Shown here piece after piece: positions 19,001-36,603 of a stretch of 64,000 nt of DNA. Origin of the DNA: a bacterium (GTDB lineage: Bacteria > Omnitrophota > Gorgyraeia > Zapsychrales > Zapsychraceae); assembly GCA_030429765.1 (NCBI GenBank), contig JAUIER010000003.1, positions 16,402 through 80,401 on the forward strand, read 5' to 3'. Each line of letters starts with the position of its first letter. Within the stretch, counting starts at the first letter, position 1. The notes under the pieces were generated by a model. That model was given only the letters and a program-made list of their open reading frames with translations, did no database searches and was not told the DNA's origin. Both the position numbers and the translations under genes were made by a program.

Positions 19001-19349
19001 GAACAAGGAGGGTGAGCTGGTACTTGAGTTTCAGCCGGCCCTGGCGAGTTGGCTGTTTACGACCAAAGCCACAACCGTTGATTTTGCAGATATTCATCAA
19101 AATCGTTATACCTGGAAACTGCCAAAAAGTTCGTACGCCTTCAAGTTTCTGAACTCCACGCTCGTGGTCTACCATAATCCCAAGCGGAAGAATACATTCG
19201 GTAAGGACAAAGCGGTAGTCCAGCGTGTTGAGATTCTGTTTGATTCGCAGGAGGCCCCGGTGGTGGTTGATGCGGCGCAGATTCCGTCACAGTACGCCCG
19301 TCAGATCCGTGATCAAAAGGCCATACGAATCGATGTTCATCTGGGCTAA
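16071..19349 (+). CDS. Large cytosolic (alpha/alpha)6-barrel glycoside hydrolase/phosphorylase-like protein (GH94/cellobiose-phosphorylase-like signature; family uncertain)
   Basis: 1092 aa with no signal peptide. It carries a PNWYDALNGLPG motif resembling the catalytic DWND(A/G)LN box of GH94 phosphorylases. Its size and predicted secondary structure also fit. Family assignment would need an HMM search. Confidence 0.35.
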   Translation: MTKSAVKYSINSNGYFVIEDYNRSKVFSSFFPGVAGLWGIPMWVFYVNRGQGIASFGIQSKDKAIMEFQPANKSYRLTTLQGFRTFIKVKQGQKTTYWEPFQNNFDGTDFKKKQNMYISAHDLILEEVNQDLGLTVRVNYFTLPDEPYSALMRRVSVENTSGKKCSIEILDGMPAIVPFGLKDWLIKNLARTVEAWVKVRNLDERAPFYQLNVEVADTSQVTHITEGNFFFSFDATASKKTMLRPIVEATKIFGSNLDFSSPEKFVNNTFQPSSKQTTNNKTPCAFAHHTFSLPAGKTHEIVSVFGYARDVDQLKEVQKQVVQEGFVPAKESQNREIIDDIKNYAQTNSASENFNLYAGHTFLDNILRGGLPISVRTSEGNIAFNVYSRKHGDLERDYNHFVVAPTFYSQGNGNYRDVNQNRRNDVWFNADVKESHIVSFLNLSQADGYNPLVVKGTSFRVMERKDADRIIDEFVESGDKDLLRDFLMKNFQPGELLVFVDENDIKIRENVRVFLGSVLEISQKQEMADHGEGFWSDHWTYNLDLIQSYLSLYPERLRELLIENNEFRFYLNHHYVRPRDQRFYLTEHGVRQYESVCDDSKDFDPSKFNFRLKTRSGQGEEYTTNLLCKLLCLIVNKAASLDPSGCGVEMEADKPNWYDALNGLPGLVGSSVSETFELQRYSAFLLDAIDKLELKDKDEFPIFEELASFITGVTNLLRVNHSALDYWNKSNDIKENYRQRVRRFIDGRETKMTVHEIRAFLELVIKKTTESLKIARNKKGQLATYFYHEVTDYKKIEGQHNEEHTLVRPLAFKKHALPLFLEGYVHAMKIQTSVADARKMYREIQKSDLYDEKLKMYKVNTNLDSETEEIGRTRIFPSGWLENESVWLHMEYKFILEILRAELFEEFYDNFKNVFVPFQKPARYGRSILENSSFIVSSAHEDKDLHGRGFVARLSGSTAEFLHIWLVMNAGERPFALNKEGELVLEFQPALASWLFTTKATTVDFADIHQNRYTWKLPKSSYAFKFLNSTLVVYHNPKRKNTFGKDKAVVQRVEILFDSQEAPVVVDAAQIPSQYARQIRDQKAIRIDVHLG

Positions 19350-22500: not shown

Positions 22501-25500
22501 TCAATCAGGCTGACTCGGCGATGCTGGCCTTAAATGATTTTTCGCGAGAATTTTTGCGACAGGTTAATGATTATCAGCGTTTAACCGAGGATCATCGTGA
22601 CATCTGGCGGGGGATTGTGAGCCGTATACAGCAGGGTGAGGAGGGGCAGGGATTCTTTAAGTTCGGAATTATCCCCAATACGCAACAACTGGATTTTTCG
22701 ACGATGGATCTCAGTGAAACGGTTGAAGGTCACGTCGATCTATTCGGGCAGGTTCGAAATGTCACAGGACGGATAGTTCGGGGTGAGTTTTATATCGAAA
22801 AAGGTAATACATTTCAGATCGCCTTGAAGCGGCCCAATAACATCATCGATCCGGAAAAAATCGCCGATTTGTATCCGGGCTTAACTATACCGGAACGGGG
22901 CGAGGCGCTGGATGAATACCTGAATGACTTGTATATCCTCGCCGCACGCATGCTGACCGGCTACAATCCGTCGACCCTCGATTTTGATGACAATGCGTTG
23001 GTCGATCCGCAGACACCGGGACGTTTGGAACGCAATGACGCGCAGTTTGAGCGTATGACCAGCATCGGGGAACTGGCTCAGCAGCCGCTGCGAATTATCC
23101 GTCTGGAGAATCCGGATGCGGTGAACTATTCCGCGTCAGAGTGGGAGCAGATCGAGGAGACGTTGAACGTTCTTGTAGACGCGGCCAATCGATACACAAC
23201 GGTCTTTACAGGAGATGTTTTTACTGAATATTTCAGCCAGATAAAAGATTGGGTGGATCGTTCGACAAGGATTACACCGGAGAATATTGACGAACTTTCG
23301 GGGGAGGCAATTGCCTTGTTGAGTGAAGTAGAGGCGATGTCAACCGAGGCGACCCGGACGGTTACGGATCAGGTTAAACGGGTACGGGATCAACTGGCGG
23401 ATGAGTATCGGAACAATCAATACACCTTTTTTAATCCGGAATCGTTGAGTCTCGTCGATGTCAAGGGATCAACCGTCGTGCACGATTTTTATAACACTTT
23501 TGGAAACATATTTCACATTGTATTTTACTTGCCGTTGACAGTGGATCCGTCATCGAGAGAAGACTTTTTTGAGGCGCAGAATAGTCTGATTGATTTTGTG
23601 ATTCGAATTGAACGGTTTCTGGAATTTTTTGATGACATTCGTGATCCGCTTCGCGTTACATCAGATTCATTGCTGACCAGTTTTTCCGAGGCGTTTCCGG
23701 AACAAACCTACCGGGATTTTCTGATCCCATTAGCCAATGCACGGCGCCGGCAAGCCAGAGAAGACCGGGCCATGTTAGCGACCGCTCGTACATCTATCGT
23801 TCAGGATCCTCAGGAGATTTCGGAAATTCTGGACGAGTGGTATGCGCAGAATCCGCAGCGGACTTTCGAGCGCGGGAAGTGGGATATCCTTTTGGGTATC
23901 GGTAACAACCTAGAGCTGATGACGGTTCGAAATCCGGATGAAAAGTTAATGGGTATTGCAGCGTTCCGTGATACGAATATCATGGTAACATTTGATGAGT
24001 TCACACCGGGATTTTCGGCCGAACTGATGGAGATAGACGAAGGCTTAAGAGGGCAAAGGCTGGGACGGTTTGTTATGAGCCAGTTAGCTCAGGAAAGTTT
24101 GTCCAGATCAGATCGTACTATGCCTGTTGTTCTCCATCCGCTGGAGGATGGCGGTGTGACCGCTGATAGCCAGCCGATGCGGCGATACTACGAGAAGATG
24201 GGATTTTATTACCTGCCGTTACCAGATGAAGCGGATCTCGAACCCGATGAAATCAGACAGAAGTATCGGCTGCAGCTGTCGGCTGAACTGGCCAATCGCT
24301 TGCAGGAAAGTATCGATGAGCTGATCCAACGCGGTCAAGCCACCGACTCCGCGATGTTAGGGGATGTGAATTGGGAGATAAATGACATTCTCCAGGACCG
24401 GGAAACACTTGATATATATCGGATCGTGGGAATAACAGGGGCTAAGGATGCGCGGGAATCGAGGATTGTCATTGAAAAGATAATCGGCGGGCGCCGTGAA
24501 GCGGTTTTGGTGTCAGAAGCCGAAAGGCGATTCCGATCGGACAAAAACTATAATGAGAGTGACTTCTATCAGATTCCGGAAGCCGATCGGCAGGAATTAG
24601 CTCGCCGAGGTTTTGAGGATATCGAGGTGATTTCCGGGGGAGTCCAGTTTCAATTTGCGGACAGGCAGGTTGACAACAAGACAGTATTTGCGGCCCGTGA
24701 CTCGAATAATGAGCGAGATGTGGTGGTTATAGTGCATAAGGATAGTTTGGAAGTCGCGGAGTTCTATGAGGAATGGAATCAGCCCGGATCAGGCATCATG
24801 GCGATCTATGAAAGCGGAACGTTTACCGATGGTAGTAATTATATGATCGCTGAGCGATTCGAGGGAACGACAATTGAAGATCTAAGCTGGGGGCAGGACG
24901 AAGGTTTTCCGGTCTCACAAATGGTTCGTTCGATTCTGGAATTCGTCGGAAATCTAAGTGAATTTCATGAACGGAATTTCTTTCATGGTGATTTGTCTCC
25001 CGGAAACTTTATCGTGAGCGATGAAGGGCGTGTCACCGCGATTGATCTCAGTAAGGCCTATCAGAACATGTACTATGACCTGGAAGATGTTGATTTAGCC
25101 GATATCCCGGATGAGTGGATACAGCGGCAGCAGGCCGATGATATTGCGTCGACGGGACAGGCCCTGTTGAACTTGGTTACGGGTAACAATGAAGGCTTTG
25201 ACTACGTATATGGCTCGCAGCAGGATCTGTCGGCGTTATTGAGATCGATGACAGATAAAAAGGTCGACTTAAACGCCATTGAGCTGAACATTTTGAGTAC
25301 GATCATCTACAAGATGCTCAATGCCGGTATCGTGGCACTAAATTCTGACAGCGACGCTATTCAGCGGATAGGTGATGATTACTATCGAACGATGGGCGAG
25401 GCGCGGGAGGATTTGCTCAACCTGCAGGCCATTCTCGACGCGGCGATGCTGGCCGATGGAGAAGACGCCGAGACCGGGGGTATCGACTTGACACCAGACA

Positions 25501-25736
25501 AGCTCAATCTGGAGATTCAGCGCGACGACGCGTCGGGTGTTCCCGCGGGCGTGATACCGTTGCCGTCCAGCGATGTGCAGATAGAGGGATTGTATCCGGT
25601 CATCATCAACATCCTGCCGGTCAGTAATCTGCCGGTGCTCTTGGGAACCGCTGAACAGGATGATCCGACGGAAGTGGGATGGCTTGAGTTTGATGTGTTT
25701 GATCAATCACTTGATCTGGTGCGAAAACCGGAATAG
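19503..25736 (+). CDS. Giant secreted multidomain protein (2077 aa): signal peptide, two class-I SAM-methyltransferase-like regions, two GNAT acetyltransferase-like regions, and a protein-kinase-like region
   Basis: Signal peptide MRLSLLNIKQFLRSNGLIRGLVAGLILSQIFWPISVEA. Methyltransferase-like: YYPGIGTDIETALRISNARRIVGVDIDP and FDFIYAGAISDDLRNASPRIAREIVRLLRLGGIALF. GNAT-like: NQGLGRGLMRDFVRKFG...QGLGFK and LRGQRLGRFVMSQLAQ...YYEKMGFYY. Kinase-like: VVVIVHKD ... FFHGDLSPGNFIV ... VTAIDLSKAY. Confidence 0.5.
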   Translation: MRLSLLNIKQFLRSNGLIRGLVAGLILSQIFWPISVEAQTISAHMPRPGAMVGFTSHHTPVLIRGVIVDPLEPFRFDFLLDTGNNISDQQVLQEESTRLIKYFLASLTVPEEDLWVNLSPYENERIIPEYFGVTEMGRDLLAQDYLLKQLTATVMYPEEELGQKFWDKVRTRALVEFGTMDVPVNSFNKVWIVPDKAVIYEQGTSAFIVEARLKVMLEKDYLAWDANGGTLDAESMKEAEEREGLDAVTRKIIREVVIPEIESEVNAGTNFAALRQIYHSLILASWYKQSIQESLINQLYSDQNKVAGVDVEDRSIKEKIYQQYIEAFKEGVYDYIKEEFDPVSQELIPRKYFSGGMKLGLQTSDILERTTRADRFQILGDPLLVQADFRSTEQSVELGTVDEAMMADDGDGPSRTNDFNRRDTGFQRIRQDVNQVERVELSPAQKAVALQRRQQEILRLREALAPYTQSVDTLYYPGIGTDIETALRISNARRIVGVDIDPFIGDAPDITSAFRSAIEDMGGRIILAEATGELNQGGRLNIEFEYDGVRREFVFYQGDALSRTPSTLPETRDGYDMFFEQAPSFDPTPQYTADIITTLNPNGIFFGRDTFVDTQSSLQPKIRVATPALGNVWVKTAESTAPASPTVWESFVPQGIKSDPAWRRDGTYVDFENPWMGTNVSAEVRIYLFKRALEAISIELPEIQDGLVMGFGETSKELEEIKDAFDIKSVRGAEWVADRVRGAARGLQENNRRPEEFTLYHEDIRDLNGVFADRSFDFIYAGAISDDLRNASPRIAREIVRLLRLGGIALFDESNPEFLQVLSNSSGTLHRLSGAGHHIYIGSDQAMLVNAVDTAEDAFRLLQNRDRQSADNFNMAFKTMADAREFVSKGGMLRFVGDIENPLAVLMAERRPNPESNFIYIADVITSLDGKNQGLGRGLMRDFVRKFGAENSIGTNLLYFRGDDQAVGGAQRAWEEFHQGLGFKILGRDDRYYFRTPGPFNQADSAMLALNDFSREFLRQVNDYQRLTEDHRDIWRGIVSRIQQGEEGQGFFKFGIIPNTQQLDFSTMDLSETVEGHVDLFGQVRNVTGRIVRGEFYIEKGNTFQIALKRPNNIIDPEKIADLYPGLTIPERGEALDEYLNDLYILAARMLTGYNPSTLDFDDNALVDPQTPGRLERNDAQFERMTSIGELAQQPLRIIRLENPDAVNYSASEWEQIEETLNVLVDAANRYTTVFTGDVFTEYFSQIKDWVDRSTRITPENIDELSGEAIALLSEVEAMSTEATRTVTDQVKRVRDQLADEYRNNQYTFFNPESLSLVDVKGSTVVHDFYNTFGNIFHIVFYLPLTVDPSSREDFFEAQNSLIDFVIRIERFLEFFDDIRDPLRVTSDSLLTSFSEAFPEQTYRDFLIPLANARRRQAREDRAMLATARTSIVQDPQEISEILDEWYAQNPQRTFERGKWDILLGIGNNLELMTVRNPDEKLMGIAAFRDTNIMVTFDEFTPGFSAELMEIDEGLRGQRLGRFVMSQLAQESLSRSDRTMPVVLHPLEDGGVTADSQPMRRYYEKMGFYYLPLPDEADLEPDEIRQKYRLQLSAELANRLQESIDELIQRGQATDSAMLGDVNWEINDILQDRETLDIYRIVGITGAKDARESRIVIEKIIGGRREAVLVSEAERRFRSDKNYNESDFYQIPEADRQELARRGFEDIEVISGGVQFQFADRQVDNKTVFAARDSNNERDVVVIVHKDSLEVAEFYEEWNQPGSGIMAIYESGTFTDGSNYMIAERFEGTTIEDLSWGQDEGFPVSQMVRSILEFVGNLSEFHERNFFHGDLSPGNFIVSDEGRVTAIDLSKAYQNMYYDLEDVDLADIPDEWIQRQQADDIASTGQALLNLVTGNNEGFDYVYGSQQDLSALLRSMTDKKVDLNAIELNILSTIIYKMLNAGIVALNSDSDAIQRIGDDYYRTMGEAREDLLNLQAILDAAMLADGEDAETGGIDLTPDKLNLEIQRDDASGVPAGVIPLPSSDVQIEGLYPVIINILPVSNLPVLLGTAEQDDPTEVGWLEFDVFDQSLDLVRKPE

Positions 25737-25869: not shown

Positions 25870-26865
25870 ATGTCAAATAGTGAAATTACCGAAATTAACG
25901 AGCGTGTTCAAAAATCCAGCCAGTTTGTTGAGGCGATTTATACCGAAGCGCAAAAGGTTATGGTTGGCCAGAAGTACCTGTTGGAACGGTTGATGCTGGG
26001 GTTGCTGGCCAATGGTCATATTCTGCTGGAAGGTGTGCCAGGCCTGGCCAAGACAACGGCTGTTAAGACTTTGTCGAGTACTATTCATACAAAATTCCAA
26101 CGGTTGCAGTTTACGCCGGATATGTTACCGGCCGATTTGACCGGGACGTTAATTTATGATCAGAAAAGCGGGGATTTTAAGGTCAAGAAAGGACCGATCT
26201 TCGCCAATATTATTCTGGCTGACGAGATTAACCGCGCGCCGGCCAAGGTGCAGAGCGCGTTACTGGAGGCGATGCAGGAGCGGCAGGTTACGATCGGGTC
26301 CGATACGTTGGGGCTCGAAGATCCGTTCCTGGTGTTGGCCACACAGAATCCGATTGAGCAGGAAGGGACTTATCCGTTACCGGAAGCGCAGGTCGATCGA
26401 TTTATGCTCAAGCTCAAGATTGATTATCCCACCAAGGAAGAAGAACATCAGATCCTGAAACGCATGGCCCATACCAAGAACAAGATCGAGATCAAACCGA
26501 TCATTCATCCCGAAGATCTGCTGGAGGCGCGGAAGATCGTCGACGAGATCTACATGGATGAAAAGATTGAACACTACATTGTCAATATCGTTGACTCGAC
26601 ACGCAATCCTGATCAGTACAACCTTAGTGACATCAAGGGATTACTTCAGTACGGGGCATCGCCGCGGGCGACGATCAATCTGGCGATCGCTTCCAAGGCC
26701 CACGCCTTTCTTCAAGGCCGCGGGTATGTCACGCCTCAAGATGTGAAGTCGATCGGAATGGATGTCCTTCGCCATCGTATTCTGATCAGTTATGAAGCCG
26801 AAGCCGAAGAAAAAACATCAGAAGATATTATCCAACGGATTTTTGACGAGATAGAAGTACCTTAG
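25870..26865 (+). CDS. moxR: MoxR-family AAA+ ATPase (first gene of the Bat-like operon)
   Basis: Walker A GVPGLAKT. ILADEINRAPAKVQSALLEAMQERQVTIG. The C-terminal half is MoxR-typical. Confidence 0.9.
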   Translation: MSNSEITEINERVQKSSQFVEAIYTEAQKVMVGQKYLLERLMLGLLANGHILLEGVPGLAKTTAVKTLSSTIHTKFQRLQFTPDMLPADLTGTLIYDQKSGDFKVKKGPIFANIILADEINRAPAKVQSALLEAMQERQVTIGSDTLGLEDPFLVLATQNPIEQEGTYPLPEAQVDRFMLKLKIDYPTKEEEHQILKRMAHTKNKIEIKPIIHPEDLLEARKIVDEIYMDEKIEHYIVNIVDSTRNPDQYNLSDIKGLLQYGASPRATINLAIASKAHAFLQGRGYVTPQDVKSIGMDVLRHRILISYEAEAEEKTSEDIIQRIFDEIEVP

Positions 26866-27036
26866 TCTGAAACGAGTGATCAGTGATCGGTAACGCGAGT
26901 ATTGCTGGATACCAAGTTCAGGGGCGGTAGGACAAAGGGCTGATATATCAGCGTGTCCTGCCAAGATGAGTCAACCATCCGGGTGTCGCGTGTCACATCA
27001 CCGGTCTCTCTCCCAAAAAACTGTAAGTCATTCATC

Positions 27037-27948
27037 ATGATACCCAAAGACCTGTTTAAGAAAATCAAACAGATTGAAATCACCACCTCCAGGCTGGTGA
27101 CGGATGTATTTGCCGGCCAGTATCACAGTGTATTCAAGGGGCAGGGGATTGAGTTTGATGAGGTGCGTGAGTATCAGATGGGCGATGATATCCGCAGCAT
27201 TGACTGGAATGTGACCGCGCGGACCGGCAAACCGCATGTAAAGAAATTTATCGAGGAGCGGGAGCTGACCGTAATGATCCTCGTCGATGTGTCGGCCTCG
27301 GCCATGTTTGGATCAACACACGAGATCAAGAGCCAGCTGGCGGCGGAGATGTCGGCGCTGTTGGCCTTATCAGCGATCCGTAATAATGATAAAGTCGGAT
27401 TGATCATCTTTACGGATGAGGTTGAGAAGTTTATTCCGCCGCGCAAGGGGCGAGGTCATGTGCTTCGACTGATCCGTGAGGTTTTGTATTTTGTTCCCCA
27501 GGGCAAACACACCAATATAACCAATGCGTTGGAATTTTTGAGCCGGGTGACCTCCCGCAAAACAATATCATTCTTGATTTCAGACTTTCTGGGGCATAAT
27601 TTGGACCGTCCGGACGGCGATCCGGATGAGACATTCAAGAAAGTCTTGTCGATTGCGAATCAGCGTCATGATTTGATCGCGATCACCATGAATGATCCCA
27701 ATGAACAGCGTCTTCCCAAGAGCGGTATCCTGCTGCTGGAGGACGCGGAGACCGGTGAGCTGGTCTATGTCGATTCGAACAGCTCAACCGTGCGCGACCG
27801 ATATGAAAAAAATAACGCCCGGCGAATCGCCAAGCGTGAACAATTATTCCGCTCGCTGGGAATCGATCATATGGATGTGTCGACCGATTCGTCGTATGCC
27901 GACGAGGTGGTTAAATTTTTCCGTCAACGGATACGTAAGCAGCGTTAA
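27037..27948 (+). CDS. DUF58 protein (vWA-like partner of MoxR)
   Basis: DDIRSIDWNVTARTGKPHVKKFIEERELTVMILVDVSASMFGS. ATG 27037 was chosen over the listed 26953. Confidence 0.85.
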   Translation: MIPKDLFKKIKQIEITTSRLVTDVFAGQYHSVFKGQGIEFDEVREYQMGDDIRSIDWNVTARTGKPHVKKFIEERELTVMILVDVSASAMFGSTHEIKSQLAAEMSALLALSAIRNNDKVGLIIFTDEVEKFIPPRKGRGHVLRLIREVLYFVPQGKHTNITNALEFLSRVTSRKTISFLISDFLGHNLDRPDGDPDETFKKVLSIANQRHDLIAITMNDPNEQRLPKSGILLLEDAETGELVYVDSNSSTVRDRYEKNNARRIAKREQLFRSLGIDHMDVSTDSSYADEVVKFFRQRIRKQR

Positions 27949-28541
27949 TGCCGGTTATGAAACATTTTTGTAAACACACAATTTGGATGGGCTGGGTATG
28001 TCTGCTTCCTAGTCTTGTCAATGCTCAGGAGGAGGGCGGATTGCGTGACATCCGCGGGCCGGTGGAATATCCGTCGTTTCCGTGGGGATCTTTTATCACC
28101 ACGCTGGTGCTCTTGTTGCTGATCGGCGGCGGATTATACTTTTATCTCGAGCGTAAGCGACGCCTCAAGGCCAAGTCCCAAGTCGCCAAGTTGCCGTGGC
28201 AGATTGCTCAGGAAAAAATCAAGGCCTTGCTGGCTTCAGACTTGTTGTCGAGCAAACAGTACGAAACATTCTACGCGCGGTTATCAGATGTCTTACGCGA
28301 ATATATCGAAAATCGTTTTGGAATCCGCGCGGTTGAGATGACGACGGACGAATTCCTGACATCTCTAAAGGACAATCAGTCTCTCGCTGACAATCACAAG
28401 CGTCTGCTGAAGCAGTTTCTCGAATATGCGGATATGGTGAAGTTTGCTAAATTCACGCCGAATCAGAAAGATGTCGAAGAAGGTTATGAAGCGGCCCGTA
28501 AGTTTATCACTCAGACGCAGCGTCGATCCGGAGGGGCGTAA
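27948..28541 (+). CDS. DUF4381-like single-pass membrane protein of the Bat operon
   Basis: Signal/TM region plus ITTLVLLLLIGGGLYFYLERKRRLK, followed by a helical domain. The position between the DUF58 and vWA genes fits this family. Confidence 0.6.
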   Translation: MPVMKHFCKHTIWMGWVCLLPSLVNAQEEGGLRDIRGPVEYPSFPWGSFITTLVLLLLIGGGLYFYLERKRRLKAKSQVAKLPWQIAQEKIKALLASDLLSSKQYETFYARLSDVLREYIENRFGIRAVEMTTDEFLTSLKDNQSLADNHKRLLKQFLEYADMVKFAKFTPNQKDVEEGYEAARKFITQTQRRSGGA

Positions 28542-29533
28542 TGGTATTTAAAACACCGTGGATACTCGCGTTGATCCCCATCGTGCTGGCCGGGATCTGG
28601 TGGATGCGCCGGGACAGAAAACCGACGACATTTCGTTTTTCCTCCCAGCAGCTGGTGGGAGGTGTCGGGAGTTCATTGCGTACGCGTTTACTGCCGTTGC
28701 CGACGATCCTTCGTTACATGGTGCTGACCTTGTTTATCTTTGCCCTGGCCGGACCCAGATTTGTGTCCGAGGAGACGGTCCGCAAAACGCAGGGGATTGA
28801 CATTGTGTTGACCATCGACGCATCGGGCAGTATGGCGGCCGAAGATTTTAATATCGGTGACAAACGTGTGAATCGTCTCACGATAGTCAAAGAGGTGGTG
28901 GCCGAATTTATTGAACAGCGGGACAGTGACCGTATCGGATTGATTACCTTTGCCGCGTTGGCCTACACCGTGACACCGCTGACGACCGACTATTCGTGGC
29001 TGCTGGAGAATCTCAAACGCGTTCGGTTAGGGATGATCCAGGATGGAACAGCGATTGGTTCGGCGATTATGTCATCGGTGGCCCGCTTAAAGGACAGTGA
29101 CGCGAAAAGTAAGGTGGCGATTCTGCTGACGGACGGAGTCAACAACGGTCGTGAGGTCGATCCGATTGAAGCCGCGCGCGTGGCCAAGTCATTCGGGGTA
29201 AAGATTTACACTATCGGTGCCGGCACGTCGGGCTATGTGCCGTTTCCGATGCGGGCGTTCGGCCGTCAGATTTATCGCGACGTCAAGATCGATCTTGATG
29301 AAGATGTGCTGAAGGAAGTCGCATATATCACCGGCGGCAAGTATTTTCGGGCGATGGATGCGGCCAAGTTGAGAGCGATCTATGATGAAATCGATCAGCT
29401 TGAAAAAACGGAAGTCGAAGAGCTTGGCTATTTCGAATACACCGAATTATTTGGATGGTTTCTCGGAGCGGGTATGATTTTGCTGTTGCTGGAGATCCTT
29501 TTGAAAAATACTTGGCTGCTGAGGGTTCCCTAA
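28541..29533 (+). CDS. batA: BatA-like vWA-domain membrane protein
   Basis: N-terminal TM region. vWA MIDAS motif: IDIVLTIDASGSMAAEDF ... LLTDGVNNG. C-terminal TM segment. Confidence 0.8.
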   Translation: MVFKTPWILALIPIVLAGIWWMRRDRKPTTFRFSSQQLVGGVGSSLRTRLLPLPTILRYMVLTLFIFALAGPRFVSEETVRKTQGIDIVLTIDASGSMAAEDFNIGDKRVNRLTIVKEVVAEFIEQRDSDRIGLITFAALAYTVTPLTTDYSWLLENLKRVRLGMIQDGTAIGSAIMSSVARLKDSDAKSKVAILLTDGVNNGREVDPIEAARVAKSFGVKIYTIGAGTSGYVPFPMRAFGRQIYRDVKIDLDEDVLKEVAYITGGKYFRAMDAAKLRAIYDEIDQLEKTEVEELGYFEYTELFGWFLGAGMILLLLEILLKNTWLLRVP

Positions 29534-29534
29534 A

Positions 29535-30548
29535 ATGCAATTTGAACAATCGTGGATGCTGAATTTGTTGTGGGCCGTATTGTTGCTGGTCGGATTCTTA
29601 CGCTGGGCAGCGGTCTATAGGGAAGGTGTGATCCGGAAGTTCGTCGACCAGAAGCTTGTCGACAAAGTTGTCATCAACGCCGGGCGCGGAGTGCAATTGT
29701 ATCGTCACATACTGATCGTTGGCGTCTTCGTCTTTGCCATCCTGGCGTTAAGCCGCCCGCAATGGGGATTTGAGTGGCAGGAGGTCAAACGTAAGGCCAT
29801 CGATATCATTGTGGTGATCGATACATCCAAAAGTATGCTGACACAGGATGTCAAACCCAATCGTCTGGAACGCACTAAGTTGGCCGTTAAGGATCTGCTT
29901 AAGAAATTGCGCGGGGATCGAATCGGGCTGATCGCGTTTTCCGGTGAGGCATTCCTGATGTGTCCTTTAACCAGTGATTATAATGGATTTGTACTCAGCC
30001 TCAATGATCTCGACGTGGACTCGGTGCCGCGCGGCGGAACGAATCTGGAGCGGGCCCTGCAGGTCGGACTGGAAAGTTTTGATGAGACGAACAGTCAGTA
30101 CAAAACGATTATTGTTGTCACCGATGGCGACAATCTCGAGGGGGACCCGACCGCGGTGGCCAGACGGGCGCGCGAGGAAGGGGTTAAGATCTATGCGATC
30201 GGCATCGGAACACGCGAAGGAGAGCTGATTCAGATATCAGATGCCGGCGATGCCCCCACGTTTCTCAAGGACTCCGAAGGTAATTTCGTGAAGTCACGTT
30301 TAAATGAGGCGCTGCTTAAGCAAATTTCGCTGATTACCGAAGGTGCCTACGTCAAGGCCAGCGGCGCGCAATTTGGACTGGACCTGATATACGAGCGTGA
30401 TCTATCGAAACTCGAGAAGCGAGAGCTGCAAACCCGGATGCAGAAAAAGTATTTTGACCGGTTTCAATGGCCGTTAACGGTCGCGTTAATCCTGTTGGTG
30501 ATGGAATCATGTTTACCCCGACGAAAAAAACAACTTGTGCAGTCTTAG
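29535..30548 (+). CDS. batB: BatB-like vWA-domain membrane protein
   Basis: IDIIVVIDTSKSMLTQDVKPNRLERTKLAVKDLL ... VVTDGDNLEGDP. N- and C-terminal TM segments. Confidence 0.8.
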   Translation: MQFEQSWMLNLLWAVLLLVGFLRWAAVYREGVIRKFVDQKLVDKVVINAGRGVQLYRHILIVGVFVFAILALSRPQWGFEWQEVKRKAIDIIVVIDTSKSMLTQDVKPNRLERTKLAVKDLLKKLRGDRIGLIAFSGEAFLMCPLTSDYNGFVLSLNDLDVDSVPRGGTNLERALQVGLESFDETNSQYKTIIVVTDGDNLEGDPTAVARRAREEGVKIYAIGIGTREGELIQISDAGDAPTFLKDSEGNFVKSRLNEALLKQISLITEGAYVKASGAQFGLDLIYERDLSKLEKRELQTRMQKKYFDRFQWPLTVALILLVMESCLPRRKKQLVQS

Positions 30549-31702
30549 GTTGGCTTGCGGCCAGCTCGTGTATGGTGACGACGGTCTCGGCCGATAATGT
30601 GGCCAAGCAGACCCGTACGGGCAACCGTCTGTACGAGGCGGACGACTTTGCCGGAGCGCTGGAAAAATACAAGCAGGCCTTAAAAATTAATCCGGAATCT
30701 GGTATCATTAATTTCAATGTCGGAAGTGCGTACTATAAGGCCGGTGAGTATGAATCGGCCGTTGAGCATCTGCAGCGGTCCGTGCTGACCGATGATGATC
30801 AGCTGCGGCAGCGGGCGCATTATAATTTGGGCAATGCGCGCTATCAGTACGGTCGGGGTTTCGTGCAGAAAGACAAGCCAAAAGCCATTGAGCAGTACGA
30901 GCAAGCGATTCGTGAATACGACAAGGTTATAGTCGCCCGGCCGGATGATGAGGATGCGTTGCACAATCGAAAGATCGTCCAGGATGAGCTGGACCGTTTG
31001 AAGCAGGAACAGGCCAGTCAGCCCAACCAGCAGAGTCAGCAAAGTCAGGACGATCAGAACAAAGATTCTCAGTCTGATAATCAGGATCAAAACAACGATC
31101 AGTCAAATCAGTCCGACCAGAACGATGATTCCTCACAGCAGGATCAGTCCGACGACTCGAATCAGGACGAAAATCAGGAAGATCAGTCGGACTCGGAGAA
31201 TCAGCCGGACGATTCCCAGGATCAGCCGGATGATTCGCAAGATCAGCCGCAGAATCAGGATCAATCTGATGAGTCGGAGGATGATTCACAATCTGATCAC
31301 TCGTCGACGGATGATCAGGAGGAACAGAATAATTCTGATGAATCTCAGTCGGATCAGCAAAACAATCAGCAAGATCAGTCGGATAATTCGCAGGGACAGG
31401 ATTCTCCGCAGGATCAGTCTTCGGATTCTCAACAGGACCAAGAGCAGGACGGACAGGGTGATCGGGAGCAGCCGCAGGATGGTCAGGAAAATCAGCCGTC
31501 CGATCAGAACGACAATCAACAGCCGCCCGATTCTCAGGGCGATGGGCGTTCCGGTATGTCACCGCAGCCGGTGGATATCAGTGATTTGACGGCCGGGGAG
31601 GCCGAGATGATGCTGAGAAATTATCAGCAATCGATTGAACCCACGGAGTTATTGAATTTTAATCCGCCAAGCCGGGGCGTTCCGGTATTGAAGGATTGGT
31701 AA
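30509..31702 (+). CDS. batC: BatC-like TPR protein carrying a ~190-aa acidic D/Q/S/N-rich low-complexity region
   Basis: TPR units (YEADDFAGALEKYKQALKINPESG ..., VGSAYYKAGEYESAVEHLQRSV) are followed by QQSQQSQDDQNKDSQSDNQDQNNDQSNQSDQNDDSSQQDQSDDSNQDENQEDQSDSENQPDDSQDQPDDSQDQPQNQDQSDESEDD.... The start could be ATG 30509 (which keeps a signal peptide and overlaps batB) or ATG 30572. Confidence 0.7.
   Translation: MFTPTKKTTCAVLGWLAASSCMVTTVSADNVAKQTRTGNRLYEADDFAGALEKYKQALKINPESGIINFNVGSAYYKAGEYESAVEHLQRSVLTDDDQLRQRAHYNLGNARYQYGRGFVQKDKPKAIEQYEQAIREYDKVIVARPDDEDALHNRKIVQDELDRLKQEQASQPNQQSQQSQDDQNKDSQSDNQDQNNDQSNQSDQNDDSSQQDQSDDSNQDENQEDQSDSENQPDDSQDQPDDSQDQPQNQDQSDESEDDSQSDHSSTDDQEEQNNSDESQSDQQNNQQDQSDNSQGQDSPQDQSSDSQQDQEQDGQGDREQPQDGQENQPSDQNDNQQPPDSQGDGRSGMSPQPVDISDLTAGEAEMMLRNYQQSIEPTELLNFNPPSRGVPVLKDW
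31000..31560 (+). repeat. Low-complexity coding DNA (imperfect gatcag/cagtc/gacgat repeats) encoding the acidic D/Q/S/N tract of BatC
   Basis: Visible nucleotide-level near-repeats, e.g. ggacgattcccaggatcagccggatgattcgcaagatcagccg. They create spurious ORFs on both strands (30927..31562 -, 31125..31589 +, 31286..31519 -). Confidence 0.7.
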
Positions 31703-31706
31703 GCCG

Positions 31707-33524
31707 ATGAATCAATTTGCCATAAGTTTATTCAATAGATGGATCAGGCCTGTCTTTGGATTATGCCTGATGTGTATGCTGCTGACAGCCGCACCGGCAC
31801 AAGCGCAGGATATATCTATCGAAGCCACGGTGAATGTGAACCGCATTCCGCTGGGCTCGGCGGTGAATTTGACCATCACCATCAAAGGCACGCAGAATGT
31901 CTCGGCCTTTGACTTGCCGCCCATTCCGGATTTTGATACCAAGTTTATCGGACCGTCGCGCAATATCTCCGTCGTGAACAATCAGTACACCACATCTATT
32001 TCGTTTACATACTCAATGCTGCCGTTAAAGGCCGGTAAGCTTCAGATCCCGATGCTTCAGGTCACAATTGATGGTAACACATATTCAACTGACGCTATCA
32101 TGCTGGATGTTTATGATCCCGCCGTGGAAGGGGATGGTCCGCAGGCGGAAACAGAACTCAGAGAAAAGATCTTTGTGCAGCTTCAGGTCCCGTCGGAAGA
32201 GGTTTATATCAATGAGCCGATGCAGGTAAAGGTTTTTCTCTATACGTCGGGGGTGGCAATCCGCGACATCCAGTATCCCAAAATGGACATGACCGGATTT
32301 ATTGACGAGGCCTATGAGCAGCCCCGGCAATATCAACAGGTGATTGAGGGTAAGCGATTTGAGATCGTTGAATTTGAAAAGTCGGTGTATCCCACCCGGA
32401 CCGGTGAATTGTCGATTGGTCCGGCACAGGTGGATTGCAATATTGTGATGCGCAACAATCGGCGCCGCGGCAGCAGTTTGATGGAAGATGATTTCTTCAG
32501 CGCATTTTTTGACCGGGGCGAAAAGCGTCCGGCCAAGCTATTGTCTGATCCGGTCAAGCTGACGGTTAAGCCATTGCCCAAAGAGGGGCAGCCGGCGAGT
32601 TTTACCGGCGGCGTGGGCAATCTGGATTTCAGTGCGGATATCAGTCCGGCTGAGGTGAACGTCGGCGATCCGATCACCTTAAGGATGAAGATTCAGGGCA
32701 AAGGGAACCTTAACGCCGTGGCCTTTCCCGAGCTCAAGAACTCCGATCAATTCAAACTTTATGATCCAATCATCAAGGAAGAAGGACGCGTCAAGACGCT
32801 GGAGCAGGTCTTGATCCCCAAATCGACCGATGTGACGGAGATCCCGGCGTTTGATTTTTCCTACTTTAACATCAGCCTCAATAAATATGTGGAAAGCCGG
32901 GAAGGGCCGTTCCCGATCAAGGTATCGCCCGCCGAGCAGGATGGCGGTTTGACCATGGTTGGCGGATTGGGTCAGAGTTCAATCATTGTTCCGCCGGAAC
33001 AATTGGGCGAGGACATTGTGTTTATCAAGGACAGTCCCGGCAAATTTCATCGTTTGGGACAACGGATGTATAATTCCGTTTCGTTCTATGTGGTGTTGAT
33101 TCTGGTGATGGCAGCGCTCATCGGCGGGTATATCTGGTACCGGCTGACGCATCGGCTGGAAACGGATTCGGCGTTTGCCCGTAAACTCAAGGCGTCCAAG
33201 CTCGCCAAACGCGGGCTTAAACATACCCAGCAGTTGATGGAACAGGGCAAGGAGCAAGAGTTTTACGACGAAACGTTTAAACTGCTCAAGCGGTACTTAT
33301 CCGACAAACTCGTGATTCCGGCGGGTACGGTGAATATCCATCAGGTCAGAGAAAAGGTTAAGGATCTGTCCTTTGATGAAATGATCCTGAGCGCGGTCAA
33401 AACAACCTTTGATGAATGCGAGTCCATCCGTTACGCCTCCGCCAGGATCTCTAACGGTCAGATGCAGGCGACCCAATCGCGTGTTCAAAAAGTGATCGAG
33501 TATTTCGAAAGGAAGGTGCGCTGA
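31707..33524 (+). CDS. batD: BatD-like oxygen-tolerance protein (signal peptide, beta-rich N-domain, C-terminal TM plus cytoplasmic helical tail)
   Basis: Signal peptide MNQFAISLFNRWIRPVFGLCLMCMLLTAAPAQA. BatD-like N-domain QDISIEATVNVNRIPLGSAVNLTITIKG. TM segment VSFYVVLILVMAALIGGYIWY. Confidence 0.75.
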   Translation: MNQFAISLFNRWIRPVFGLCLMCMLLTAAPAQAQDISIEATVNVNRIPLGSAVNLTITIKGTQNVSAFDLPPIPDFDTKFIGPSRNISVVNNQYTTSISFTYSMLPLKAGKLQIPMLQVTIDGNTYSTDAIMLDVYDPAVEGDGPQAETELREKIFVQLQVPSEEVYINEPMQVKVFLYTSGVAIRDIQYPKMDMTGFIDEAYEQPRQYQQVIEGKRFEIVEFEKSVYPTRTGELSIGPAQVDCNIVMRNNRRRGSSLMEDDFFSAFFDRGEKRPAKLLSDPVKLTVKPLPKEGQPASFTGGVGNLDFSADISPAEVNVGDPITLRMKIQGKGNLNAVAFPELKNSDQFKLYDPIIKEEGRVKTLEQVLIPKSTDVTEIPAFDFSYFNISLNKYVESREGPFPIKVSPAEQDGGLTMVGGLGQSSIIVPPEQLGEDIVFIKDSPGKFHRLGQRMYNSVSFYVVLILVMAALIGGYIWYRLTHRLETDSAFARKLKASKLAKRGLKHTQQLMEQGKEQEFYDETFKLLKRYLSDKLVIPAGTVNIHQVREKVKDLSFDEMILSAVKTTFDECESIRYASARISNGQMQATQSRVQKVIEYFERKVR

Positions 33525-34285
33525 TGAAGTGGACCCGCGGGATGATAGGTGTAGTGCTATTGTTGATGAGCGCGTTTTCGGCCGAGGCCGCCATGCCGCA
33601 GCAGGAAGCGGTGTCTCAATTTGTCCTGGGCAATCAGGCTTACAAAGAAGGTGCTTACGAAAAAGCGATTGAGGAATACCGCGCGATTCTCGAAGGCGAC
33701 CGTGAGAACGGTCATTTGTATTACAACCTGGCCAATGCCTATTTCAAAAACAGACAACTCGGTTATTCTATTCTAAACTATGAGCGGGCGCGGCGGCTCA
33801 TGCCGCGCGACAGCGACTTGAAATTTAATCTGGCCTACGCCGAATCACTGGTCCGTAAGACGGCACAGCCCGAACCGGCGGGATTCGTTTCGGAGATGAT
33901 CAGCGGTCACGTGAACTTTTATACGTTGGACGAAATGTTCCTGATGACGACGGTTCTGGTGGTATTGCTCGGTGCGGTATTTTTGATGTCACGTTTCCTG
34001 AAATGGCCGAGGGTGATGAAGACGGTCAGTCGCAGTGTCCTGATCATCCTGATCCTGGTTTACAGTATCGGTTTAATTCTCAAGGTCCGCGTGACGGCGG
34101 ATCAGGCGGTTATCGTATCCAATACACCGGCCAATTTTGAGCCGTTAGAGACCGCGACAATGCGTTTCGAATTATTTGAAGGGATGAAGGTAAAGGTGCT
34201 AAGATACAAAGATGGATGGGTCAAGGTCGAGCGGGATGACGGGCTGTTGGGCTGGGTCACGCAGACGTCGCTTGAAGAGATTTAG
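33524..34285 (+). CDS. batE: BatE-like protein (TPR, TM, C-terminal SH3b-like domain)
   Basis: Signal peptide. TPR (GNQAYKEGAYEKAIEEYRAIL, YYNLANAYFKN). TM segments. C-terminal VKVLRYKDGWVKVERDDGLLGWVTQTSLEEI, which is SH3-like. Confidence 0.65.
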   Translation: MKWTRGMIGVVLLLMSAFSAEAAMPQQEAVSQFVLGNQAYKEGAYEKAIEEYRAILEGDRENGHLYYNLANAYFKNRQLGYSILNYERARRLMPRDSDLKFNLAYAESLVRKTAQPEPAGFVSEMISGHVNFYTLDEMFLMTTVLVVLLGAVFLMSRFLKWPRVMKTVSRSVLIILILVYSIGLILKVRVTADQAVIVSNTPANFEPLETATMRFELFEGMKVKVLRYKDGWVKVERDDGLLGWVTQTSLEEI

Positions 34286-34312: not shown

Positions 34313-34741
34313 ATGGCGTCGAATTTCTACACGGTAAAAACACTATTTCGTTCGCAGGCCAAAGGGCGTCCCAAGTTACCGGACCGGTTTTTTGATCCGG
34401 ATGCGACTTTACTCGAAGAACGGATTCAACTGATCAAGGCCAAAAGCCGGGTCGAAGCCTTGAAGAAGGCCGAAAAGGACGCCCGTGAATACGCCAAGCG
34501 GATTCGTTATCAGAATCCCTACGATCAGGACGTGACACTGGAGTATTTGGGGCTCAATGAGATTTTTGAGGTTGAGCATGCGTTACAGGATAAAACAGAG
34601 ATCTATTCCAGCAGTCGAATCATCAGTCAGAAAACATCTGTGTCAAAGATTGCGCATACCTATCTCAATAAAAAGCAATCGTTAGAGCACAGCAAGCGAA
34701 AAAAATTTGTTAATAAGGCGTATTTCCATGACCAAAATTAA
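34313..34741 (+). CDS. Hypothetical protein, DUF4288-like
   Basis: The N-terminus NFYTVKTLFRSQAKG resembles the WYAVK.LFRS start of DUF4288 proteins. This is a weak call from memory. Confidence 0.35.
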   Translation: MASNFYTVKTLFRSQAKGRPKLPDRFFDPDATLLEERIQLIKAKSRVEALKKAEKDAREYAKRIRYQNPYDQDVTLEYLGLNEIFEVEHALQDKTEIYSSSRIISQKTSVSKIAHTYLNKKQSLEHSKRKKFVNKAYFHDQN

Positions 34742-35453
34742 ATGTCGGGGGATTTTGTCAGCATTGTTCCTCATGTGTATATTTGTCTCACCTGTCCAAG
34801 GGCAGGCGCAGTCCAATCAGAATGCCGATCGACTTGAAGCGCTGCGCGAGTTGATGGAGGCCACCGAGGCGGCGGAGGCCGCGGCCAAGAAGGTGGAAGT
34901 CAAGATCAAAACGGTTGAGGCCGAGGAAAAGGACGAGGCGGCTGAAGAGTCCGACGAACCCGAATTCGTCAACTGCTATCAATACTATCAGGAAACCGAA
35001 ACTTGCCCCAAGGAACAATGTAATCTAGGGTGTTTGGGCGGCATCATTTATGAAGATTGTGAAATCGGCTGTGAACCCAAGCCGTGTTTTGAGATTCCGT
35101 TGGAACATTGCCCGACGAGTGTCTGTCAAATCCAGGAAGGCTGCGAAGGGGTAGACGTTTGTTTTCCGCAGAATGACTACGCACCGCCGAGATGTGGAGA
35201 TTTGGCCTATTCCGGATCAGATGTCGAGTGTTGTCCCGGATATGTGAAGCGCTGCGGGATCGAATTTTTTGACGGAACATGTGATATGGCCGGCCGAGAC
35301 AGTATTTACGGGGTGCCTATTTGTCTGCCCTGCGGTAACGGGATTTGCAATCAGTTTGAAAATGCCTGTAACTGTCCGGAAGATTGCCGTCGACGACACA
35401 CGATCAATATCGAATACACGCCGATTCAGCCGCGCCGGTCCGGATCAAAATAG
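34728..35453 (+). CDS. Cysteine-rich secreted protein (signal peptide, acidic linker, then a ~150-aa domain with ~30 Cys)
   Basis: Signal peptide MTKIKCRGILSALFLMCIFVSPVQG. Cys-rich domain CYQYYQETETCPKEQCNLGCLGGIIYEDCEIGCEPKPCFEIPLEHCPTSVCQIQEGCEGVDVCF...CCPGYVKRCG...CLPCGNGICNQFENACNCPEDC. I recognise no family. Confidence 0.5.
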   Translation: MTKIKCRGILSALFLMCIFVSPVQGQAQSNQNADRLEALRELMEATEAAEAAAKKVEVKIKTVEAEEKDEAAEESDEPEFVNCYQYYQETETCPKEQCNLGCLGGIIYEDCEIGCEPKPCFEIPLEHCPTSVCQIQEGCEGVDVCFPQNDYAPPRCGDLAYSGSDVECCPGYVKRCGIEFFDGTCDMAGRDSIYGVPICLPCGNGICNQFENACNCPEDCRRRHTINIEYTPIQPRRSGSK

Positions 35454-35457
35454 TCTG

Positions 35458-36603
35458 TTACGCTTGAATCGTTTTGAAGATGGCCTCGGCCGCTTTGAGG
35501 GTGGCCGGTGAGGTGCCCAGCGATTCAGTCATCGCCTTTAATTCACGTTTCATTTCCGCGATACGTATTTCATTTGTGAAAATAGCCTGTAGGGCATCGG
35601 CCAGGTCTTTGGGATTGGCGTCATGCTGAATAAATTCAGGAACAACCTCTTTCTGCGCGACGACATTGACCAACGAAATGTGCGGGATCTTGACGACAAG
35701 TTTGGCAAGCGCCCAGGTGCTCCACGACGTCTTGTACATCACTACCATCGGCTTACCCAGGATCGCCGTTTCAAGTGTCGCCGTCCCCGACGTGACCAGA
35801 CAGATATCACACACATTAATTCCGTCGTAGATATGATCCTCGATGATGTTAAAATGGATCGGTATATTTCGGGTCATGTCTTCAATGGTCGATCTCTCTA
35901 TTGACGGGGCCTTGAGGATAACAAACTGCAGCATGGGATAGTCGGCGTGCAGCCGTTCGGCAGTCTCCAACATAACCGGTAAACAGCGTTCGATCTCTTT
36001 TTGACGGGATCCGGGCAATAGGCCCAGCGTGATCTTTTCCTGTTGCAGGGCGAAGAGCTGTGTCGCTTCGGTCTTGGTCATGGATGTCTCGACGGTATCA
36101 ACCAGCGGATGGCCCACAAAGTCCACATCATAATCGTAGCGCGCGTAAAATTCCTTTTCGAAATCAAATAATACCAGCATCCGGTCGATGTATTCTTTGA
36201 TAAAGAATACCCGCTTTTTCTTCCAGGCCCATACCTGCGGGCTGATGTAGTAAATAACTTTGGTATCGAGTTCCTTGAGCTGCTTGGCCAGGCGAAGATT
36301 GAAGCCGGGATAGTCAATGAGAATGACCGCAACGGGTTTTTTCTGCCGGATTTTTTCAAGGATCATATAAAAGATTTTGCGGAATTCGCCATAGTGCTTG
36401 AGTACCTCGACAAAACCCACCACGGCCAGCTTGGTCAGATCATAGTGAATCTCCACGCCGCTTTCACGCATCTTGGGCCCGCCGAGGCCCGAGAACGTTA
36501 AATTGGGATTGAGTTGCTTTAATGCGTCGACGAGAAGGGCGCCGTGAAGGTCGCCCGAATCTTCACCGGCGATTACAACGATATGGTCTGATTGTTTTTC
36601 CAT
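35458..36603 (-). CDS. lpxB: Lipid-A-disaccharide synthase
   Basis: MEKQSDHIVVIAGEDSGDLHGALLVDALKQLNPNLTFSGLGGPKM ... YYISPQVWAWKKKR. Confidence 0.9.
   Translation of the reverse strand: MEKQSDHIVVIAGEDSGDLHGALLVDALKQLNPNLTFSGLGGPKMRESGVEIHYDLTKLAVVGFVEVLKHYGEFRKIFYMILEKIRQKKPVAVILIDYPGFNLRLAKQLKELDTKVIYYISPQVWAWKKKRVFFIKEYIDRMLVLFDFEKEFYARYDYDVDFVGHPLVDTVETSMTKTEATQLFALQQEKITLGLLPGSRQKEIERCLPVMLETAERLHADYPMLQFVILKAPSIERSTIEDMTRNIPIHFNIIEDHIYDGINVCDICLVTSGTATLETAILGKPMVVMYKTSWSTWALAKLVVKIPHISLVNVVAQKEVVPEFIQHDANPKDLADALQAIFTNEIRIAEMKRELKAMTESLGTSPATLKAAEAIFKTIQA

Follow-up and report, generated by a model that had tools for sequence, protein, structure and literature searches.

Within the 64,000-nucleotide stretch of contig JAUIER010000003.1 analysed here (assembly GCA_030429765.1, phylum Omnitrophota; hereafter the window), a gene at 34728..35453 on the plus strand encodes a 241-residue cysteine-rich protein, which we consider, with a probability of roughly 0.55, to be a small, non-enzymatic, disulfide-knotted and acidic binding module of the cell envelope. 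Residues 83-220 of this protein form a 138-residue domain with 22 cysteines, which constitutes a new family in the large class of exported domains rich in disulfides and, going by its predicted structure, probably also a new fold. The gene and the parts of its product are:

34728..35453, plus strand: coding sequence of the cysteine-rich exported protein, 241 residues and a TAG stop (open reading frame listing, translation, homologues)
34728..34799, plus strand: signal peptide, residues 1-24, MTKIKCRGILSALFLMCIFVSPVQG (sequence reading; AlphaFold2 helix over residues 5-19)
34800..34973, plus strand: variable linker, residues 25-82, with a predicted Ala/Glu helix at residues 29-53 and the acidic run EAEEKDEAAEESDEPE; predicted local distance difference test score (pLDDT) 58-79
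34974..35084, plus strand: sub-module A, residues 83-119, with C83, C93, C98, C102, C111 and C115; CPxxxC followed by a β-hairpin (strands at residues 98-102 and 113-117)
35085..35192, plus strand: sub-module B, residues 120-155, with C120, C128, C133, C139 and C145; a second CPxxxC and β-hairpin (strands at residues 133-137 and 143-147)
35193..35387, plus strand: module C, residues 156-220, with 11 cysteines in the pattern C..CCxG[LY]..RCG..C..CxPCGNGxCxxFENxCNCPEDC; recurs in other lineages
35322..35387, plus strand: mini-module, residues 199-220, CLPCGNGICNQFENACNCPEDC; the most conserved core, whose patterns retrieved loci across phyla
35388..35453, plus strand: variable basic C-terminal tail, residues 221-241, and the stop codon; pLDDT 49-67

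The open reading frame begins with an ATG at 34728 (an alternative in-frame TTG lies at 34707) and ends with a TAG at 35451-35453; between this codon and the stop codon of lpxB, which is convergent, lie the four nucleotides TCTG. An earlier reading of this DNA, made from the letters and translations alone (the sequence-only reading), had drawn attention to the gene. The open reading frame that it pointed to is real (plus strand, 241 residues from an ATG), as is the 4-nucleotide spacing to lpxB, which Pfam identifies as such (LpxB, E 1.7e-101); its acidic linker can be read in the translation (VEAEEKDEAAEESDEPEF), as can every cysteine motif that it quoted. Its figure of about 30 cysteines in about 150 residues has to be lowered to 24, two of them in the signal peptide and 22 in the 138-residue domain, and its dense series of CxC, CxxC and CC motifs was overstated, since the domain holds one of each. 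It had also placed the gene immediately after a Bat operon. Such an operon does lie upstream, consisting by Pfam of MoxR (AAA_3), DUF58, DUF4381, BatA+VWA, VWA, TPR, BatD and TPR+SH3 genes, but a 142-residue DUF4288 gene (34313-34741) intervenes.

The cysteine content is exceptional for this genome region. The other 44 open reading frames of the window average 0.74% cysteine, and the binomial probability of finding at least 24 cysteines in 241 residues is 1e-19 when judged against the window proteins. This excess is also specific to the reading frame of the gene, with 24 cysteines against 3-7 in the other five frames. The domain itself is 16% cysteine, contains 13 aromatic residues and a single histidine, and is strongly acidic, with 23 Asp and Glu against 6 Lys and Arg (net charge -17; the family-wide median for the domain is -11).

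The N-terminus (MTKIKCRGILSALFLMCIFVSPVQG/QAQS) is Sec-like, with a basic n-region, a 13-residue hydrophobic core and a V-x-G ahead of the likely cleavage site, and it contains no twin-arginine motif. A hydrophobic N-terminal 12-mer is present in 113 of 118 homologues, which upholds the signal peptide proposed at the outset. The protein would be exported by Sec and cut after VQG. A lipoprotein was considered and rejected: the window protein reads FLMC, its cysteine is not conserved, and a lipobox-like string occurs in just 9 of the 118 family members. The linker is the variable part of the family, as the segment ahead of the first domain cysteine ranges from 13 to 97 residues, and the C-terminal tail is missing or unrelated in most homologues.

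The behaviour of the cysteines was followed across 161 aligned sequences that span the whole domain. Twenty of the 22 are present in 160-161 sequences, including all five of sub-module B, which are found in 161/161, and the 11 invariant cysteines of module C. The remaining two, C102 and C111, are jointly missing in 31 sequences, with only three single losses, and clustering of the domain sequences places this joint loss in separate clusters of the family. One sequence lacks exactly C83, C93, C98, C102, C111 and C115, namely the six cysteines of sub-module A. Loss as a pair or as a closed set of six keeps the cysteine count even, and thus points to disulfide partners and not to Cys3 or Cys4 metal sites. 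This pattern supports a C102-C111 disulfide, and the most likely arrangement of the 22 cysteines is 11 disulfides within the domain, reduced to 10 in the natural variants without C102 and C111. The pairs other than C102-C111 are ones that we infer: three bonds, C102-C111 among them, would lie within sub-module A, which therefore leaves eight among the other 16 cysteines, and C176 probably ties module C to sub-module B.

AlphaFold2 models the domain with confidence, both on its own (125 sequences; pLDDT 93.2, predicted template modelling score 0.81) and in the full-length protein (46-sequence alignment; pLDDT 86-97 over residues 80-220). The predicted structure is a compact, β-hairpin-rich knot with little hydrophobic core, comprising one short helix and three short β-hairpins (residues 98-102/113-117, residues 133-137/143-147, and short strands in the C-terminal half). 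Given how little hydrophobic core there is, the cross-links probably hold the domain together. As both N-terminal hairpins come after a CPxxxC motif, sub-modules A and B may be copies of a duplicated CPxxxC-hairpin unit. The sequence-only reading had left the choice between a disulfide-knotted and a metal-binding module. The first is favoured by the paired loss of C102 and C111, the even count, the Sec rather than twin-arginine (Tat) signal, the 13 aromatic residues and the compact model, and the second is correspondingly disfavoured.

The statement that no family could be recognised has held up in all the searches made. Scans of the protein against Pfam (E<=10) and NCBIfam gave no match; a phmmer search of the PDB gave none either, and the best hit of a profile search of the PDB was an unrelated protein with E 0.97. 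Foldseek comparison of the full-length model with the PDB (350,542 chains) gave a best E of 0.34, the domain-only model gave a best E of 1.0 with a query-normalised template modelling (TM) score of 0.2 or below, and the full-length model found nothing significant in BFVD. The profile and structure searches that had been proposed as a check thus revealed no homology to EGF, metallothionein or ferredoxin-like families. The non-significant Foldseek list is dominated by follistatin/Kazal domains, EGF-like domains and cystine knots (a double-knot toxin), which are likewise small, hairpin-rich, disulfide-stabilised extracellular binding domains and are known mostly from eukaryotes, but their cysteine spacing differs and the best values remain at E 0.34-1.0 and query-normalised TM <=0.2. 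Membership in the EGF-like, follistatin/Kazal or inhibitor cystine knot families was accordingly rejected for want of a Pfam match at E<=10 or of any PDB profile or Foldseek match. Cysteine-rich exported envelope proteins are known from the same superphylum (Planctomycetes-Verrucomicrobia-Chlamydiae) in the form of chlamydial OmcA/OmcB and the cysteine-rich wall proteins of planctomycetes, which act via intermolecular cross-links. The window domain differs from these proteins in that its invariant, even cysteines and compact model point to intramolecular bonds; the protein also has no Pfam match at E<=10, in a library that should include the chlamydial outer-membrane protein families.

More than 160 homologues of the gene were found, nearly all in Omnitrophota, and every named one is a "hypothetical protein". 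A collection of 5.8 billion clusters (90% identity) yielded 129 matches, one identical (P0001) and the others down to E 1.8e-86, the named ones coming from metagenome-assembled genomes of Candidatus Omnitrophica/Omnitrophota. A profile search of 1.84 billion representative proteins (50% identity) gave 357 matches at E<=1e-3, 121 at E<=1e-10 and 32 at E<=1e-30, and by the measure of these searches the family of 22-cysteine proteins is small. The Omnitrophota proteins (e.g. MCA9392566.1, MCA9403530.1, MBZ0166032.1) show 40-67% identity to the window protein and have the same signal peptide, variable linker and 22-cysteine domain, and a position ahead of a convergent lpxB gene is common to the window gene and its relatives. 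All 22 cysteine positions (C83...C220) align between them; in the window protein the acidic helical linker is longer and a basic tail is present, and there is otherwise no difference of substance. Comparison with the closest homologues gives a non-synonymous substitution rate (dN) of 0.20-0.30 for the domain and of 0.5-0.8 for the linker; the synonymous rate (dS) is saturated. Pfam, NCBIfam, cluster look-ups and the literature yielded no name, profile model or study for this Omnitrophota family, and literature searches on cysteine-rich or disulfide-bonded proteins of Omnitrophota, on cysteine-rich extracellular proteins of Candidate Phyla Radiation (CPR) bacteria and DPANN archaea, and on literal motifs (CPEDC, CGNGIC and others) returned no description of it.

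Module C reaches far beyond this family. In a species-level scan, using one genome per GTDB species, 46 loci match the whole domain; they are labelled as Omnitrophota, "uncultured Planctomycetales" or "uncultured bacterium" bins, and show the same synteny where flanking DNA was available. A further 25 loci match just residues ~157-220 or ~198-220, save L066, which matches from residue 117, and belong to Myxococcota, Bacteriovoracaceae, Gammaproteobacteria, Falkowbacteria, Paceibacterota, Moranbacteria, Peribacteraceae and Woesearchaeota. In the translated loci the generic module reads C...CCxGL...C...CxxCG[DN]GxC..E[ND]xCNCPxDC and is often in tandem; nested inside its ~65 residues is the mini-module of ~20 residues, CG[DN]GxC..E[ND]xCNCPxDC. 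Twelve columns, nine of them cysteines, are invariant over 25 modules from different lineages. When 298 collected proteins were classed by their start point on the domain profile, 202 had the full domain, always in single copy; 9 started within sub-module A and continued through B and C (1 multi-copy); 22 had B and C (3 multi-copy); 56 had module C only (36 multi-copy); and 9 had only the ~20-residue mini-module (5 multi-copy). Stand-alone module C proteins of ~100-135 residues, all "hypothetical", occur in Aenigmatarchaeota, Altiarchaeota, Patescibacteria and Polyangiaceae. Thus module C elsewhere (CPR bacteria, DPANN archaea, Myxococcota and others) is usually tandem or stand-alone, whereas the window protein has one copy with the extra cysteine C176 and with sub-modules A and B. 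Going by these profile matches, the full domain, in which A and B precede module C, belongs to Omnitrophota and, outside the phylum, to a minority of the relatives.

Pfam and NCBIfam scans of 17 relatives with the domain or module matched fusion partners only, and nothing over the module itself. These partners are all extracytoplasmic: SLH domains, a Kre9/KNH immunoglobulin-like domain, bacterial TSP3 repeats, Kazal domains and DUF333. In one protein (P0133) the whole domain stands behind SLH domains, and in another (P0136) it is encoded on an archaeal contig that carries the gene for ribosomal protein L32e. Distant whole-domain relatives have the domain at the C-terminus, lipoprotein-type signals and Gly/Ala/Ser-rich linkers, and appear to come from bacteria of high G+C content; a phmmer search seeded with the distant relative P0150, whose contig shows an unrelated two-component-system context, gave 6 proteins only. 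The Myxococcus cysteine-rich repeat (TIGR02232 / PF13948-type, CGDGxxxxGExCDDGN) has the CG[DN]G start in common with module C, and both occur in one giant protein of Peribacteraceae (L077). A link to this repeat (TIGR02232/DUF4215-like) was rejected, as hhalign against the L077 repeats gave 4.6% probability over 5 columns, with no Pfam or NCBIfam match. A second, shorter paralogue is encoded in an Omnitrophota genome (L061, 9710-10924; HK-STAS-OMNI-4), where module C is joined to a C-terminal region of ~200-250 residues with recurring "RC...A...D..C" motifs; this region is also present in P0159, P0171 and P0235.

Since the protein has no catalytic domain, presents a rigid acidic surface on a tether, and has relatives joined to anchors for the cell surface and to repeats that bind calcium or mediate adhesion, a binding role is the most likely one. 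In the mechanism that we propose, the Sec-type signal peptide would carry the protein across the inner membrane and would be removed after VQG, leaving a mature protein that consists of a flexible, variable acidic tether and the 138-residue domain. Oxidative folding into 11 disulfides would hold the domain together, and its rigid acidic surface might then bind a target located in the periplasm or at the cell surface. Very tentative candidates for this target are divalent cations, or a partner that is basic or bridged through a metal. Several points weigh against this interpretation. A binding module is the default conclusion for any protein that lacks catalytic features, and with Bat so closely adjacent in 76% of species, a functional link between the two is still conceivable. 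Genes for DsbA, DsbB or VKOR were not seen in the 64-kb window, whose only thioredoxin-like protein is a 769-residue DUF255 fusion (Thioredox_DsbH, E 1.4e-80; 7688-9997, plus strand), and the habitats of Omnitrophota are often anoxic. The 7688-9997 protein also has, downstream, a weak match to GlcNAc 2-epimerase (E 9.9e-05), below Pfam's cut-off.

What is defined here is an undescribed family of ~140-residue, 22-cysteine domains, with a confidently predicted fold that has no solved relative, and whose core is a widespread and equally undescribed extracellular module common to ultra-small or predatory lineages (Omnitrophota, CPR, DPANN, Myxococcota). Large proteins of the window, encoded at 158-3388, 3422-7681, 10012-11823 and 19503-25736, contain 0-0.1% cysteine; the first three (plus strand) are two TPR-containing proteins of 1076 and 1419 residues and an AsmA/YhdP-like protein of 603 residues, and their strong avoidance of cysteine contrasts with the 22-cysteine domain. 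Such cysteine-depleted neighbours beside an invariant 22-cysteine protein suggest that the envelope of Omnitrophota has a dedicated requirement for oxidative folding, which amounts to a testable statement on redox biology in the envelope of a phylum that is uncultivated. In practical terms the gain is modest: a candidate for a new family in Pfam, and a scaffold that is compact and highly cross-linked. The protein does not represent a new kind of system.

The gene neighborhood in the window is composed of:

First part of the window, before the GH161 gene: genes for AsmA-like, PilZ, YgjP, YqeY and polysaccharide deacetylase proteins
16071..19349, plus strand: GH161-phosphorylase-like gene, 1092 residues (PDB 9qqk_A, E 2.7e-229; no Pfam match)
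19503..25736, plus strand: gene for a 2077-residue protein without cysteine, between the GH161 gene and MoxR
25870..34285, plus strand: Bat-type operon of MoxR, DUF58, DUF4381, BatA-VWA, VWA, TPR, BatD and TPR-SH3 genes (Pfam)
34313..34741, plus strand: DUF4288 gene, 142 residues (Pfam E 8.8e-18), overlapping the start of the cysteine-rich gene by 14 nucleotides
35458..36603, minus strand: lpxB, convergent (Pfam LpxB, E 1.7e-101)
Beyond lpxB and a GFO/IDH/MocA gene paired with it: msbA-like ABC transporter gene, then rpsB, tsf, pyrH and frr

Synteny was compared over 46 species-level loci, with the presence of Bat judged at the locus. On the downstream side the convergent lpxB gene lies within 700 nucleotides in 33 loci and 0.7-6 kb off in 7; three loci reach the contig end, and in three the gene is followed by a relative of the 2077-residue gene (L028, L047) or by no recognised gene in the 8 kb read (L030). 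The window gene is therefore typical in being the last co-directional gene before convergent lpxB and GFO/IDH/MocA genes, as lpxB is found within 6 kb in 40/46 loci. The 2077-residue gene itself changes position, standing before MoxR in the window and downstream of the cysteine-rich gene in L028 and L047. Upstream, the neighbor is the last Bat gene in 28 loci and a DUF4288 gene, itself preceded by Bat, in 7. The other 11 have no Bat operon, and in these a GH161 gene stands upstream of the cysteine-rich gene, directly (7 loci) or at a distance of 1.6-2.3 kb (4 loci). Among the loci that contain Bat, at least 12 show this GH161 gene ahead of MoxR, where the fetched DNA begins upstream. Its product in the window is a close relative of solved GH161 phosphorylases, with 60% identity to the 1100-residue protein of L003 and likewise across Omnitrophota, and the gene is a fixed backbone neighbor of the region with Bat and the cysteine-rich gene. 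As the GH161 gene thus occurs with and without Bat, the Bat operon behaves as a present-or-absent cassette between the GH161 and the cysteine-rich genes (L003, L008, L013-L015, L020, L024-L026, L035, L040, L051 and L054). In a clustering of the domain sequences the loci without Bat are scattered and do not form one cluster. Further, two whole-domain relatives outside Omnitrophota whose contigs were read, one of them archaeal, have neither Bat nor lpxB nearby. The cysteine-rich gene is hence a backbone gene that ends the co-directional string facing lpxB in Omnitrophota, and not an obligatory part of Bat.

It overlaps DUF4288 by 14 nucleotides in the window and the GH161 gene by 17 nucleotides in L003, and follows the last Bat gene after a gap of 3 nucleotides in L006. 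Because it abuts whatever precedes it, this tight spacing is better explained by genome compaction than by a functional operon. Functional operons were rejected both with DUF4288, as that gene occurs at this position in only 7/46 loci, and with the 1100-residue upstream gene, which encodes a cytoplasmic GH161 phosphorylase. The functional tie to the Bat operon is itself weak, and the earlier suggestion that a disulfide or metal-binding module would be plausible next to an oxidative-stress operon loses much of its force, as Bat is upstream in 35/46 loci, not at the locus in 11, and not near the two relatives outside Omnitrophota.

It is nevertheless conceivable, although we think it unlikely, that the protein serves the Bat complex as an accessory subunit or ligand (a "BatF"). 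Its acidic domain would then dock on the periplasm-facing VWA domains of BatA/BatB at their metal-ion-dependent adhesion site (MIDAS), or on BatD, or the protein would be a redox-sensitive client or sensor of the complex. MIDAS sites take an acidic ligand residue. The net charge of -17 of the window domain would suit such docking, the VWA domain of the BatA-like protein BB0173 being known to face the periplasm with an accessible MIDAS (PMC5700661). The gene is also co-directional and 0-250 nucleotides past the last Bat gene in 28/46 loci (only 3 in L006), with 7 more following DUF4288 after Bat. On the other hand, 11/46 species keep the gene without Bat there, near the gene for a cytoplasmic GH161 phosphorylase; these Bat-less loci are dispersed through the domain-sequence clustering; full-domain relatives outside Omnitrophota, one on an archaeal contig, stand without Bat genes nearby; and the Bat operons described in Bacteroides, Leptospira and Borrelia are not known to contain such a gene (PMC3557215; PMC5700661). 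Still more doubtful is the specific proposal that, in Omnitrophota, this protein is the partner still missing for the Bat MoxR-VWA complex on the periplasmic side, where it would act as a rigid acidic disulfide-knotted ligand or as a redox-sensitive client that docks on the MIDAS of BatA/BatB. The function of Bat itself is unresolved (PMC3557215), and has been so since 1999; if true, this proposal would give the first concrete molecular handle on its targets.

As unlikely in our view as an accessory role in the Bat complex is a secreted effector in cell-cell interaction, for instance an adhesin, an inhibitor of proteases or lysozyme, or a miniprotein resembling a toxin, serving the predatory or host-dependent lifestyle that has been proposed for the phylum. 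Disulfide-rich miniproteins are typically inhibitors or toxins, and module C occurs together with Kazal inhibitor domains, with TSP3 repeats and with large proteins of the cell surface. It is found in episymbiotic or predatory lineages such as CPR, DPANN, Myxococcota and Bacteriovoracaceae, and Omnitrophota have been described as ultra-small predators (bioRxiv 10.1101/2023.11.21.568195). However, this lineage spread may mirror the genomes that dominate groundwater and sediment metagenomes, and the protein has no homology or fold match to an inhibitor or toxin, the best Foldseek hit being the double-knot toxin at E 0.34-1.0 and TM <0.32. The gene is moreover a core syntenic one among the housekeeping genes lpxB, msbA, rpsB and tsf, which is atypical for an effector island, and in a two-membrane cell its Sec signal alone would reach only the periplasm, with no secretion system encoded adjacent to it.

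Distinctly less probable is that the cysteines serve as ligands or reactive thiols, either in a periplasmic protein that binds metal (in the manner of metallothioneins, zinc proteins or Fe-S proteins) or in one that acts as a sacrificial buffer of thiols. Such a role would fit a very acidic domain with 16% cysteine, the frequency of anoxic habitats among Omnitrophota, the fact that a Dsb-type oxidase gene was not seen within the 64-kb window, and the location of the gene beside an operon once linked to aerotolerance. Yet the cysteines are lost pairwise (31 sequences) and never in threes or fours, so that their count is always even; CxxCxxCxxxCP is missing, with one CxxC and one CxC only; the 13 aromatic residues, one histidine and invariant Gly/Pro positions are unlike metallothioneins; the Sec-type signal without a twin-arginine motif argues against export with a pre-assembled cofactor; and the metallothionein and Fer4 families of Pfam are unmatched. 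Metallothioneins have ~30% cysteine, arranged in CxC/CxxC clusters, lack aromatic residues, do not adopt a fixed fold unless metal is bound, and are usually cytoplasmic. A metallothionein is thus ruled out by the 16% cysteine, the one CxC and one CxxC, the 13 aromatic residues, the signal peptide and the lack of a Pfam match, and a 4Fe-4S ferredoxin-like protein or Tat substrate by the missing CxxCxxCxxxCP and twin-arginine motifs and the lack of a Fer4 match in Pfam.

That the gene is a chance open reading frame or an annotation artefact has a negligible probability: its Shine-Dalgarno-like sequence is weak (AAGG, 11-14 nucleotides before the start), and scans for promoters and terminators around it gave values at the level of the shuffled background, but the conservation data refute such an origin, given the invariant cysteine positions in more than 160 homologues and the synteny kept across 46 species, as do the frame-specific cysteine excess, a dN far below dS and the confident structure model. 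As judged from this conservation, the cysteine-rich gene is a real and conserved gene.

Some neighboring genes deserve brief mention. The 2077-residue protein has weak matches only, to methyltransferase, GNAT acetyltransferase and ABC1/kinase-like families, and the DUF4288 protein has neither a recognisable signal peptide nor a solved relative that we could find. On the minus strand (35458-37511), lpxB overlaps by 31 nucleotides the gene for a GFO/IDH/MocA-family oxidoreductase, and this pair is kept in most loci, with the msbA-like ABC transporter gene next to it. The oxidoreductase family presumably includes GnnA of the GlcN3N-lipid A pathway.

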